DNA of 64,000 nt from Bacteroidia bacterium (GTDB lineage Bacteria > Bacteroidota > Bacteroidia > M30B66), in the NCBI GenBank assembly GCA_965279035.1, contig OZ257142.1, positions 824,682-888,681 of the forward strand, written 5' to 3'. The notes under the pieces are model-generated. The model was not told where the DNA came from. It searched no databases and saw nothing but the letters and a program-made list of their open reading frames with translations. Positions 17,830 through 20,280 of this stretch are shown piece by piece (within the stretch, counting starts at the first letter, position 1; each line of letters opens with the position of its first letter). The translations under genes were made by a program, and so were the position numbers.

Positions 17830-18750
17830 TCACGAAATATGTGGTCGCACATCAAATTTTGTAGCTAGAATCGCATTTTCAGGAAGCAAGCATGGAATTC
17901 CTCCAACGATAGGATAAGCAAGTAAACCTTCGGGAGAATAATAACAATCGGCTCGTTTCTCCAATTTTGTTTTAGTAATTGGACAGGAAACTGGTGTATC
18001 AATTTTTGACGAATTATTCTCGTTCTCCACCGAAATCAAAATAATTCCTGAAGGATTCAAAGGAGTCATGATGCATTCCATCAATTGATACATTTCAATC
18101 TTCATCCCGAGCTTTTCGGCAGTTGCTTTCAAATTTCTCACATATCCATGATGACGCATGCGCTCTTGTGCCGCTTCGGTTGCGAGCTCATAAATAGGCT
18201 CAAAAAGAACGAGGTATTTTTTGGTCACCCGAAATAATTCTTTCAATATTTCTTCCTCTCTACTACCATTAGGCTCTATTGCATGTGAGGTAAAAACGAC
18301 ATCAACCGATTTATCTGCAAGTGGAATATTAAATAAATCACCCGTAAATAAATTGGCATGTCCAAAACCTTTGTTTTGAAGATACATTTTCGCGAAACTG
18401 ACTCTTGACCAAGAGATGTCAAAACCATAAATATTGGATGGTTTATTATTGAGAAGAGGAAGCATATTTCCCAAGGTTGTAGCTTCTCCAATACCTGCTT
18501 CTAAAATAGAATCGAATGGACCAATTTTATTGAGAATGGATGCGATTTCGCTGCAGTAAACTAAATTCTTATCATGATTTTCGTTGGCGTATTGAATGTA
18601 ATTTCCAGTTTGAAAATCATAACTAATTTGAATTGCTTCGGTTGTATTGTATTGAGTTTTCTCAATATCACGAAGTAAATTGATGATATTCTCTCCCTTA
18701 CTGTAACTCTCTTTTACATGCAAAAGATGTTTGTATAATTTATTATTCAT
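17830..18750 (-). CDS. Class I SAM-dependent methyltransferase fused to a C-terminal Trm112-like zinc-ribbon domain
   Basis: Motif I 'LEAGIGEAT'. The C-terminal 'CPITK..L......YYS..GL.YPI..GIP.LL' resembles DUF343/Trm112. Confidence 0.6.
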   Translation of the reverse strand: MNNKLYKHLLHVKESYSKGENIINLLRDIEKTQYNTTEAIQISYDFQTGNYIQYANENHDKNLVYCSEIASILNKIGPFDSILEAGIGEATTLGNMLPLLNNKPSNIYGFDISWSRVSFAKMYLQNKGFGHANLFTGDLFNIPLADKSVDVVFTSHAIEPNGSREEEILKELFRVTKKYLVLFEPIYELATEAAQERMRHHGYVRNLKATAEKLGMKIEMYQLMECIMTPLNPSGIILISVENENNSSKIDTPVSCPITKTKLEKRADCYYSPEGLLAYPIVGGIPCLLPENAILATKFDVRPHIS

Positions 18751-18816
18751 CAGCGTCTTTTTTTAAATTGAAAACAAAATTCAAAAATGATTTATCAAGC
18801 GAAAGAATTCATATTC

Positions 18817-19545
18817 TCATACTTTGAGTAGTTTATTCATTAATTCTTGTTTTGAAATATTTCCACTCATTAATATTTCATAACTCTTTTCTCCGCAATT
18901 AAACATTAAATCAAATACAGTCATATAGGGCTCAAAAGCACCGTATTTCTGAGGATATACAGGATGATTGTAGCTTTGGAAATCGATTTGAATTCCTTCG
19001 TTGTGAAATGAATCCGCATTCGCATAATTTTTTCCTAATGCACCAAAAAGAAATAACTCAGGCTTTACTTTTTTACACATATCCAACACTAAATCTGATT
19101 TTTTCCCTGTTAAATCTAAATCATGACCGTAAAGAATATCTACATGGATATTTAAATCTTTTAAAATAAACCGTAGAATATAATCATTGAGTTCCGCTAA
19201 ATACTCCCAATCCATGCTATATAATTCACGGAAAAATGAAATGTATTTATCGTAATATAAGGTCTTTGAATAATTGTATTCTATCGACCGTAAATGCTTT
19301 TTTTTCCAATTCCGTTTATTGTCAATTTGTAAATCTTGAAGTTTAATATCAATTTTACCATATGTATAAACAGGAACAGTAAGCCAGAGAGGACCTTTAG
19401 AAGTTTTTATTTTATTTCGACTGTTCCAATCTTCTTTCAAATATTGAACAGTATCAAAAACTACATAGGCATCTGAAACGGCAATTTTATGAATCAATCC
19501 ACACCAAGGCAAATAAACTGGTTGATGGGAAGTGAGGATTTTCAT
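18817..19545 (-). CDS. WbqC-family protein (function unknown; recurrent in O-antigen loci)
   Basis: The N-terminus 'ILTSHQPVYLPWCGLIHKI...DAYVVFDTVQY' matches the WbqC-like family signature. Confidence 0.7.
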   Translation of the reverse strand: MKILTSHQPVYLPWCGLIHKIAVSDAYVVFDTVQYLKEDWNSRNKIKTSKGPLWLTVPVYTYGKIDIKLQDLQIDNKRNWKKKHLRSIEYNYSKTLYYDKYISFFRELYSMDWEYLAELNDYILRFILKDLNIHVDILYGHDLDLTGKKSDLVLDMCKKVKPELFLFGALGKNYANADSFHNEGIQIDFQSYNHPVYPQKYGAFEPYMTVFDLMFNCGEKSYEILMSGNISKQELMNKLLKV

Positions 19546-19578
19546 TGGATTGATTCTTCAAAAATGGATGATCGTGTA

Positions 19579-20280
19579 TTATTGTGTTTTGTTGTTGATC
19601 GCAACGACTTCCCACTCAGCATGAATTCTAACAGCTGGTAAAGTAACATCTTCGAATGATTTATGAGTAATACTTTTGATTTCCCAGCCTTTTTCTAAAA
19701 CATCAAAAATGTTGTTCTTCCCATAAAAACACATGGTATGGCTTCCGCTAGGACCACCATCGGAATTATGAATCATCCCATCTTCTCCCATTTTTCCTGA
19801 AGCAAATAGAGAATTACGTTCACTGTAAGGAGTAAAATAAAAAACACCTTGATTGAGTAGCACTCTTTTTATTTCACGTATTGTTTCTTTTGCCAAATTG
19901 AAATTTACATAGGAAACAGATCCTCTGTCGATTACAATATCAAATGAATTGTCAGGAAAAGGAAGTTTTGTGAAATCACCCACAATAAATTCGCCTTCTA
20001 AGTTTTCATCTTTAAAGCGTTTGCGTGCATATTCAACAGCGGTTGCACTACCTTCAATTCCTGTTACGGAGAAGCCTTCACGAGCAGCAAACCACAAATT
20101 ATTTCCTGTCCCACTGCCAACTTCAAGAATCCGAACATCTTTTCGCTCTTTATTTCTAGGATAATTTTTGAAAAGAAAAGCAACAACAGAATCGTAGGGA
20201 TAACGTACAATGTTTTTGTCTTTACTGTAAATATCTTCTTCCCAGATTCGTATCGTGTCGCTATTCATTGCTTGAATCAT
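19579..20280 (-). CDS. Class I SAM-dependent methyltransferase
   Basis: Motif I 'ILEVGSGTGNN' and 'FDIVIDRGS'. Confidence 0.7.
   Translation of the reverse strand: MIQAMNSDTIRIWEEDIYSKDKNIVRYPYDSVVAFLFKNYPRNKERKDVRILEVGSGTGNNLWFAAREGFSVTGIEGSATAVEYARKRFKDENLEGEFIVGDFTKLPFPDNSFDIVIDRGSVSYVNFNLAKETIREIKRVLLNQGVFYFTPYSERNSLFASGKMGEDGMIHNSDGGPSGSHTMCFYGKNNIFDVLEKGWEIKSITHKSFEDVTLPAVRIHAEWEVVAINNKTQ

Follow-up and report, generated by a model that had tools for sequence, protein, structure and literature searches.

The 64,000-nucleotide stretch of DNA analyzed here, hereafter called the window, comes from a Bacteroidia bacterium (contig OZ257142.1, positions 824,682 to 888,681) and carries a run of minus-strand genes that continues without interruption in the open reading frame (ORF) listing from position 32114 to position 3019. 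These genes encode the exporter components Wzm and Wzt, the latter 426 amino acids (aa) long, and three class I S-adenosylmethionine (SAM) methyltransferases that we call MT1, MT2 and MT3. Operon genes were assigned with Pfam and NCBIfam profiles, and their identities indicate that region 3019-32114 is a single ABC-transporter-dependent surface-glycan operon of a Bacteroidota-like bacterium. The original prediction made for this DNA proposed that terminal O-methylation by the three methyltransferases, in combination with an extended Wzt protein, controls chain length and export of the glycan. We find this interpretation to be partly supported. Our favored reading, to which we assign a probability of roughly 0.62, is that MT1 and MT2 tailor a nonulosonic acid (NulO) before its transfer, and that they are not chain terminators of the WbdD type.

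From the gene identities and neighborhood statistics, which are established, we infer the substrates of these enzymes and the order of their reactions. That both enzymes act on the nonulosonic acid is, in our judgment, likely. The most economical reading is that they would tailor its N-acyl substituents, because the two genes reside in a NulO module, because relatives of MT1 reside in flagellin glycosylation islands, and because the same ingredients (a ligase, a PIG-L protein and methyltransferases) recur among these systems.

A nonulosonic acid module containing MT1 and MT2

MT2 (19579-20280), a 233-aa protein matching Pfam Methyltransf_25/11, and MT1 (17830-18750), a 306-aa protein, are encoded in a module with the gene order NeuB, MT2, WbqC, MT1, and they do not look like terminators. 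The start codon of MT2 overlaps the stop codon of NeuB (20277-21332) as ATGA, and the two genes are translationally coupled. A gap of 33 bp separates MT2 from the gene for the WbqC-family protein (18817-19545; Pfam WbqC E = 5.9e-67). All three methyltransferases pass the Pfam class I cut-offs and have intact SAM motifs (LEAGIGEA, LEVGSGTG and LDVGCGIG for MT1, MT2 and MT3, respectively), in agreement with the original count of three separate enzymes. The four ORFs named at that time, which encode these enzymes and Wzt, are all confirmed on the minus strand, where every operon feature described here is located.

The NulO biosynthesis block (20277-28934) begins with PseB (27930-28934; 510.6 bits against an NCBIfam equivalog cut-off of 407.75) and PseC (26748-27917; 453.4 against 423.5). 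These are the only Pse equivalogs above their cut-offs, and the six-enzyme pathway (PseB, C, H, G, I and F) is not complete. On the basis of these two early steps, the product is predicted to be a NulO of the pseudaminic acid type. Genes for an aldo-keto reductase, an SDR protein and a CTP_transf_3 cytidylyltransferase follow, then those for a metallophosphoesterase (23393-24094), an ATP-grasp ligase with a PylC-like N-domain (22452-23390), a PseG-like protein (104 bits, below the cut-off of 153.55) and NeuB, which scores 264 with the PseI model (cut-off 340) and higher with the NeuB/NnaB model. PseH is absent from the locus as annotated with Pfam and NCBIfam, and the ATP-grasp ligase is found in its place. 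By analogy, the ligase/phosphoesterase pair suggests that a phosphorylated acid or amino acid might be ligated onto the sugar amine. The pair (22452-24094) thus occupies the PseH position in the window, as an ATP-grasp ligase and a HAD phosphatase do in the flagellin island of Clostridium brassicae (L170; compared genomic loci carry L-numbers as labels throughout).

The module itself appears to be mobile within an otherwise stable locus. The NeuB-MT2 pair recurs in L088 and L172, where MT2 is 58% and 51% identical to the window protein, respectively, and where three methyltransferase genes lie inside the NulO block. The window NeuB is 61% identical to the NeuB proteins of these two loci and 29-34% identical to those of the otherwise syntenic L005, L030, L068 and L173. 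From these identities, NeuB and its tailoring genes seem to be swapped as a cassette within a conserved locus frame.

A precedent for such tailoring comes from Campylobacter and Legionella. In Campylobacter, ptmG and ptmH sit between legC and neuB, and an N-acetyl group is converted to an acetimidoyl group that is then methylated. We take PtmG to be a member of the WbqC family. MT2 is a class I SAM methyltransferase adjoining both NeuB and a putative amidino-forming WbqC gene, and so it occupies a PtmH-like context, making MT2 and WbqC candidates for PtmH-like and PtmG-like functions. PtmG is known to convert the acetamido group to an acetamidino group, and in Legionella pneumophila serogroup 1, which has a Wzm/Wzt-dependent O-antigen, legionaminic acid is N-methylated on its acetimidoyl group by the methyltransferase that ORF 8 encodes (PMC3766260). 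The Legionella system thus resembles the window in exporting a NulO glycan through Wzm/Wzt, and both precedents share with it an amidino-forming enzyme and a SAM methyltransferase near NeuB that modify the sugar N-acyl group. They differ in that the early steps of the window are PseB/PseC-type rather than LegB/LegC-type, and in that the window adds MT1, a PIG-L deacetylase, and the ATP-grasp ligase with its phosphoesterase. Moreover, the window polymer is not expected to be a NulO homopolymer, given nine additional glycosyltransferase genes, namely four GT2, one GT11, two GT4 and neighbors of ORF491.

Our literature search turned up no functional study of WbqC. When plasmids were searched for WbqC, we encountered Bacillus megaplasmid amino-sugar clusters that have WbqC with PIG-L and lack NeuB, and these give no direct support to the PtmG analogy. 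One such WbqC-PIG-L pair lies in an amino-sugar cluster without NeuB on a Bacillus cereus plasmid (NZ_CP085499.1; L169). Because the pair occurs without NeuB, the WbqC family is not confined to nonulosonic acids.

The second line of evidence concerns the MT1 family. In total, 1780 proteins match MT1 at E <= 1e-5, and the best 120 of these are full-length, approximately 50% identical, and distributed among Bacteroidota, Bacillota (Firmicutes) and Patescibacteria. A pattern-limited scan of species-representative genomes placed MT1 relatives in 314 stretches and returned 80 loci. Of the 66 loci that span 8 kb or more, 41 have NeuB within 10 kb of MT1, compared with 1 of 47 control loci anchored on MT3 (Fisher p = 5e-12), and the gap between MT1 and NeuB is less than 300 bp in 16 loci. 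In contrast, Wzm is present in just 2 of the 54 MT1-anchored loci that span at least 15 kb. Flagellin glycosylation islands also contain MT1 homologues, as in Sporosarcina, Desulfitobacterium and Clostridium brassicae. There the gene is near those for flagellin and neighbors NeuB, PseG, a cytidylyltransferase (PseF), PseB and Maf, and these Firmicute organisms have neither O-antigen nor Wzt.

The likeness of these islands to the window is considerable, as an approximately 50% identical MT1 with the same C-terminal tail is found beside PseB, PseG, NeuB and PseF, and an ATP-grasp ligase and a phosphatase are present as well. They differ in that the acceptor is flagellin, reached through Maf transferases, and in that Wzm/Wzt and the glycosyltransferase candidate ORF491 described below are missing. 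In a survey of clostridial flagellar islands, methyltransferases were found to be conserved alongside the Pse and Leg genes, and in C. botulinum a CarB-like ligase gene is located near LegI together with a methyltransferase gene, while the flagellin bears N-methyl-glutamyl legionaminic acid (PMC13317340). By these analogies, tailoring of the kind proposed for MT1 and MT2 has precedents in Campylobacter, in Legionella and in the flagella of clostridia.

The original prediction described MT1 as carrying a Trm112-like zinc ribbon and considered such a fusion unusual for a glycan locus. A Trm112-like element does appear to be present at the C-terminus (approximately residues 252-296; CPITKT...AYPIVGGIPCLLPENA), but it is not a four-cysteine ribbon. 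Within the family, C255 is invariant and C286 nearly so, and these are the only cysteines conserved where four zinc-binding residues would be expected. The window protein gives no match to Pfam Trm112p at E <= 1 and a weak match to the UPF0434 protein 2jr6 (E = 0.009), whereas 6 of 24 family members do match Trm112p (best E = 3.6e-7), and several homologues carry the JGI label 'YbaR (Trm112 family)'. The C-terminal motif CP(I/V)T...YP(I/V)..GIPCLLP.NA is conserved throughout. Because the tail motif is family-wide, the fusion is not an oddity of this locus; by this sequence evidence it is ancestral to a large, multi-phylum MT1 family, and is both widespread and common. The Trm112 link also raised the idea that MT1 is a tRNA or protein methyltransferase, which we rejected on the basis of genomic context.

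The PIG-L/LmbE-family de-N-acetylase gene (16170-16877) is the usual neighbor of MT1 and ORF491. Its product is 72-77% identical in syntenic loci, and in 8 loci it lies within 40 bp of MT1. In the window, MT1 and PIG-L are separated by an insert (16951-17823) that encodes an NAD-dependent epimerase/reductase-like protein with weak Pfam Epimerase and RmlD_sub_bind matches. None of the 54 MT1-anchored loci spanning 15 kb or more has this insert.

If these assignments are correct, PseB and PseC would start synthesis of a pseudaminic-acid-type nine-carbon sugar, and the ATP-grasp ligase and phosphoesterase would take the place of the N-acetyltransferase PseH. WbqC, PIG-L, MT2 and MT1 would then remodel the N-acyl groups of the sugar, most likely at its free or CMP-activated stage. 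Examples would be the addition of an N-methyl group to an acetamidino or aminoacyl substituent, or of an O-methyl group to an acyl side chain. The original prediction had named methylation of the nonulosonic acid as counting against a terminal methyl cap, and this reading of MT1 and MT2 matches that case.

It could instead be proposed that MT1, MT2 or both methylate the terminus of the finished polymer to control its length and export, with the Trm112-like tail serving as an adaptation for this purpose. Consistent with this proposal, both genes share an operon with an extended Wzt, and MT1 is found beside ORF491, a candidate capping enzyme, in many loci. However, homologues of MT1 with the same tail are found in Gram-positive flagellin islands that lack Wzm/Wzt, and the counts of NeuB and Wzm in MT1-anchored loci given above show that the gene tracks NeuB rather than the exporter. 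Furthermore, L173 has retained the binding-domain motif of Wzt despite having no MT1, MT2 or WbqC, and L171 holds ORF491 and the glycosyltransferase block without MT1. Finally, neither enzyme gives a BLASTP match to WbdD, for which we used the protein from the annotated O9 locus of Escherichia coli HS. We consider this proposal very improbable, and thus, of the three enzymes originally suggested to carry out terminal O-methylation, MT3 is left as the sole possible methyl-cap candidate.

Several observations nevertheless weigh against the assignment of MT1 and MT2 to NulO tailoring before transfer. All functional assignments made here are predictions from sequences and models. The NeuB/NnaB model fits NeuB better than PseI does, and NeuB and PseG alike fall below their cut-offs, so that the pseudaminic-type sugar is a tentative assignment. 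MT2 has been likened to PtmH, and WbqC to PtmG, by context and not by sequence. Approximately one third of the MT1-anchored loci have no NeuB within 10 kb. One example is L002, a Cytophagaceae metagenome-assembled genome, where positions 10001-10909 encode a homologue that shares the MT1 tail. It adjoins a Laminin_G protein that carries a type IX secretion system (T9SS) signal, and there are no sugar genes within 10 kb. Moreover, in L087 the MT1-PIG-L-ORF491 trio heads an operon with no NulO genes in view, and because the trio stands alone there, MT1 could act after transfer, on the polymer.

Assignment of MT1 to NulO tailoring would give a widespread, uncharacterized family a testable role in the modification of sialic-acid-like sugars, from Clostridium flagella to Bacteroidota surface glycans. 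It also carries a caution for annotation, in that the number of methyltransferase genes beside an extended Wzt is by itself no signature of methyl-cap control.

The Wzt binding domain and ORF491

The Wzt gene (28954-30234) adjoins that for Wzm (30255-31112), the ABC-2 permease of the glycan exporter (Pfam ABC2_membrane E = 1.5e-16; 71% identity to the syntenic gene of L005), and so the locus is of the Wzm/Wzt type, as proposed originally. Wzt matches ABC_tran at residues 63-194 (E = 6.8e-24), and its nucleotide-binding domain extends over approximately residues 59-260. Approximately 165 aa lie beyond this domain, close to the 170 or so first claimed, and they include a Wzt_C match at residues 278-397 (PF14524; 33.7 bits, gathering cut-off 30.4), with the binding domain occupying approximately residues 278-426. 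Residues 59-395 align with full-length Wzt from Aquifex aeolicus (8dku/7k2t). The nucleotide-binding domain is 50% identical to that of E. coli O9 Wzt, whereas BLAST detects no similarity between the O9 binding domain and the window extension, and a phmmer search of PDB sequences with the isolated extension found nothing at E <= 10.

An AlphaFold model of the extension, built on a shallow alignment of nine homologous fragments from a domain-only homologue search, is all-beta (pLDDT 71, pTM 0.69). All 16 of its best Foldseek matches in the PDB are carbohydrate-binding domains of Wzt proteins, including those of Aquifex (8dky/6o14), E. coli O9a (2r5o) and the O12 Kdo-cap binder (5hno/5hnp), and the best of these is Aquifex 8dky, whose domain is bound to 3-O-methyl-mannose. 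Judged by this model and the Wzt_C match, the extension is a true carbohydrate-binding beta-sandwich of the cap-reading kind. The claim that the extension is a carbohydrate-binding module therefore stands, and the beta-sandwich whose absence had been named as counting against the original prediction is present.

When 5426 complete E. coli genomes were searched with wzt, 207 of them gave a match to a similar gene for the ATP-binding protein of an ABC transporter, and the one region inspected was L085 (NZ_CP033401.1, 3596949-3615381). This island at tRNA-Sec carries genes for a GT4 enzyme, Wzm, a 469-aa Wzt, a WsaF-like rhamnosyltransferase and two large hypothetical proteins. We rejected it as a representative O9 locus because it is an unrelated island, and used the O9 locus of strain HS instead.

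Although overall identity among the extensions is 41-45%, the motif R-x-G-R-[ST]-R ... PGV[YF]ETY[YF]WLG ... DVVDNLL is strongly conserved, and it is present in the window, L005, L030, L007 and L173 regardless of methyltransferase content. Because the motif is kept in this manner, the ligand of the domain is likely to be independent of MT1 and MT2. Among characterized systems, a Wzt protein with such a binding domain always exports only capped chains (PMC11231755), and for this reason some terminal signal is expected here. By analogy with these systems, export control by a terminal signal is plausible.

An explanation that dispenses with a cap holds that the domain binds internal repeats or is vestigial, that length is set by enzyme stoichiometry, and that the methyltransferases add non-essential, strain-variable decorations. 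Methyltransferase content does vary widely among syntenic loci, as is typical of serotype-like decorations, and Pfam scans of the locus reveal no molecular-ruler protein. Against these points stand the strong conservation of the domain motif, which argues for a conserved ligand, and the terminal caps bound by every characterized Wzt protein with such a domain. We therefore regard this explanation as improbable, though less so than termination by MT1 and MT2.

Whereas the fold of the Wzt domain and the fold relatives of ORF491 are established, the identity of any cap is something that we infer. ORF491 (14698-16173), a 491-aa candidate GT-B glycosyltransferase, has no Pfam match at E <= 0.01 and does not pass the Capsule_synth (PF05159) profile, but some of its 332 homologues carry weak Capsule_synth (KpsC/KpsS) matches. 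Four cysteines (C37, C44, C55 and C58) and an R-x-H-P motif are invariant in the family. The protein has a GT-B fold and an HP motif, and among solved structures it is closest to KpsC (of the GT107 family KpsC/KpsS) and WbbB (GT99), both of them beta-Kdo transferases. Of 14 loci inspected, 13 have ORF491 after the NulO genes. On the strength of the fold relatives, we propose ORF491 as a candidate nonulosonic acid transferase and a possible chain capper.

Few nonulosonic acid transferases are known, and one of them comes from the same phylum. In Tannerella forsythia (Tanf_01245 / TFUB4_00887), a GT-B transferase with an HP motif is encoded directly after the CMP-NulO genes, with one methyltransferase gene between them in strain UB4, and this enzyme places the tailored sugar at the end of the glycan (PMC5420450). 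Unlike the window product, that glycan is a protein-linked oligosaccharide of a general O-glycosylation system and not a Wzm/Wzt-exported polymer; the Tannerella transferases are also approximately 445 aa long and TagB-like, and they are likened to ORF491 by context and the HP motif.

A second comparison is with Klebsiella pneumoniae O12 and Raoultella terrigena, where WbbB (GT99) adds a beta-Kdo cap that is read by the Wzt domain. Like that system, the window has a Wzt C-terminal beta-sandwich, whose model matches 5hno/5hnp, as well as an HP-motif GT-B protein near KpsC and WbbB, and an acidic ulosonic sugar could be the cap in this case too. ORF491 differs from WbbB in being a stand-alone protein of 491 aa that has four invariant cysteines and lacks both a coiled coil and fused polymerase modules. 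As a putative capping enzyme it would draw on a CMP-nonulosonic acid as donor in place of CMP-Kdo, and the binding domains share no similarity at the sequence level.

The locus frame is consistent with such a role. The order Wzm, Wzt, PseB...NeuB...(MT1, PIG-L), ORF491 and the glycosyltransferase block recurs in at least five loci of Bacteroidota assemblies, and the GT2-GT2-GT11-epimerase-GT2-GT2/GT4 order of that block is shared by L005, L030, L068, L008, L088, L171 and L173. L171 has the frame without MT1, PIG-L and MT3, and L173, lacking the genes already mentioned, has a different methyltransferase. What stays constant alongside the Wzt-domain motif is the NulO pathway, together with ORF491 and the backbone enzymes. 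As the backbone enzymes are just as constant as ORF491, the frame does not prove a NulO cap, and the sequence would fit either a terminal or an internal NulO.

We envision that ORF491 would put the tailored sugar on a fucose-containing backbone made by the GT2, GT11 and GT4 enzymes, and that Wzm/Wzt would export the lipid-linked product, with the Wzt C-terminal domain reading a terminal signal. By analogy with the Kdo-capped systems, the nonulosonic acid might itself be this cap, a suggestion that we offer tentatively. The fuller proposal is that a tailored, methylated pseudaminic-type NulO is the chain-terminating cap, that it is added by ORF491 as the founding member of an unclassified KpsC/WbbB-like transferase family, and that it is read by an arginine-rich subfamily of Wzt domains. 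Taken jointly, these claims are possible but doubtful. As the signal for the Wzt domain, we place a NulO added by ORF491 a little ahead of a methyl group supplied by MT3, with the remaining probability falling to some other signal or to none.

If the proposal is true, this would be the first nonulosonic acid terminator in an ABC-transporter-dependent pathway, and the original idea of a methylated cap would hold in an unexpected sense, with the methyl groups carried by the capping sugar. Chain capping by ORF491 would add a new type to the known caps (methyl, methyl-phosphate and Kdo). The ORF491 family in any case offers a concrete, structurally supported candidate for a NulO transferase.

MT3 as a possible source of a methyl cap

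MT3 (3019-3921; 300 aa, Pfam Methyltransf_23) might O-methylate the non-reducing terminal sugar of the backbone, such that the methyl cap stops polymerization and is the ligand of the Wzt domain. Forms of WbdD that have methyltransferase activity only, as in E. coli O8 and Klebsiella O5, serve as the model. The existence of a Wzt binding domain, which in characterized systems implies a cap (PMC11231755), and the 3-O-methyl-mannose bound by the best fold match are in keeping with this idea. The MT3 family, with 297 representative clusters at E <= 1e-30, has a conserved N-terminal CxxC...CxxC element (residues 10-13 and 32-35) and includes homologues fused to GT4, GT2, polysaccharide deacetylase or a second methyltransferase domain. 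These fusions, which mirror the window gene order (deacetylase, GT4, GT4, MT3), point to action on glycans. As in the window, MT3 follows two GT4 genes and precedes a formiminotransferase-cyclodeaminase (FTCD) gene in L089, L094, L095 and L103. In addition, an MT3 homologue lies within 10 kb of Wzt in six more distant, unrelated loci that lack NulO genes. In four of these (L100, L101, L109 and L113) the Wzt ORF is an extended one of 375-408 aa, and in the other two it ends at the sequence edge. From such sequence associations, it is credible that MT3 acts on the glycan itself as an O-methyltransferase.

Other observations disfavor a role for MT3 in capping. Its match to WbdD is confined to 78 aa around the SAM motif (26% identity, E = 4e-6), and there is no coiled coil. 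The gene is 265 bp away from the nearest GT4 gene (GT4b) and 25 kb from wzt, and in L092 it is beside FTCD, with the glycan genes convergent on the opposite side. Nor does MT3 come after the glycosyltransferase block in the syntenic loci L088 and L171: the first has a hexapeptide transferase there, and the second ends after one GT4 gene. Moreover, a Wzt protein at least 50% identical to that of the window is found in only 6 of 47 MT3-anchored loci. A promoter and terminator scan of the GT4b-MT3-FTCD junctions, made with a tool that does not cover Bacteroidota promoters, was uninformative. On balance we consider an MT3 methyl cap unlikely.

The wider comparison with E. coli O9a/O8 (Klebsiella O3/O5) gives a similar picture. 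The window shares Wzm/Wzt export, half of the residues of the nucleotide-binding domain, the 2r5o fold and the presence of methyltransferases with those loci. It differs from them in having no kinase domain (none of the kinase family was found in Pfam scans of the locus), no coiled-coil ruler and no terminator gene adjacent to wzt, as well as in the limited WbdD match of MT3 and the lack of BLAST similarity between binding domains. With respect to the ruler, the three methyltransferases are 233-306 aa long and leave no spare region for a coiled coil, a judgment made on length with no coiled-coil predictor run.

Remaining operon genes and flanking DNA

The first gene of the operon (31182-32114) encodes a GDP-L-fucose synthase (Fcl; NCBIfam GDPFucSynFcl, 491.9 bits against a cut-off of 500), which probably supplies the GT11 fucosyltransferase. 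The latter is part of the glycan backbone block (4187-14696), in which Pfam identifies, in order, GT2, GT2, GT11, an epimerase, GT2, GT2, a GNAT-like protein, a polysaccharide deacetylase, GT4 and GT4. The G+C content of operon genes is 32-39%, and that of the flanks is slightly higher.

Upstream of the operon, a 649-aa ORF on the minus strand (35228-37177) has no Pfam match at E <= 1e-5, and a separate small sugar cluster on the plus strand (37504-40172) encodes a DegT-type aminotransferase, a PglD-like hexapeptide acetyltransferase and a GT2 enzyme. At the other end of the window, positions 27-1025 of the plus strand encode a protein with PKD and CHU_C domains, the latter a type IX secretion signal, and this protein, together with the best-matching loci, indicates a Bacteroidota host. 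On the minus strand, a long run of short ORFs closing with one of 701 aa (43308-60936) resembles ribosomal protein operons with EF-G. Because of this ribosomal-like run and the CHU_C protein, the window is judged to be chromosomal and of Bacteroidota origin.

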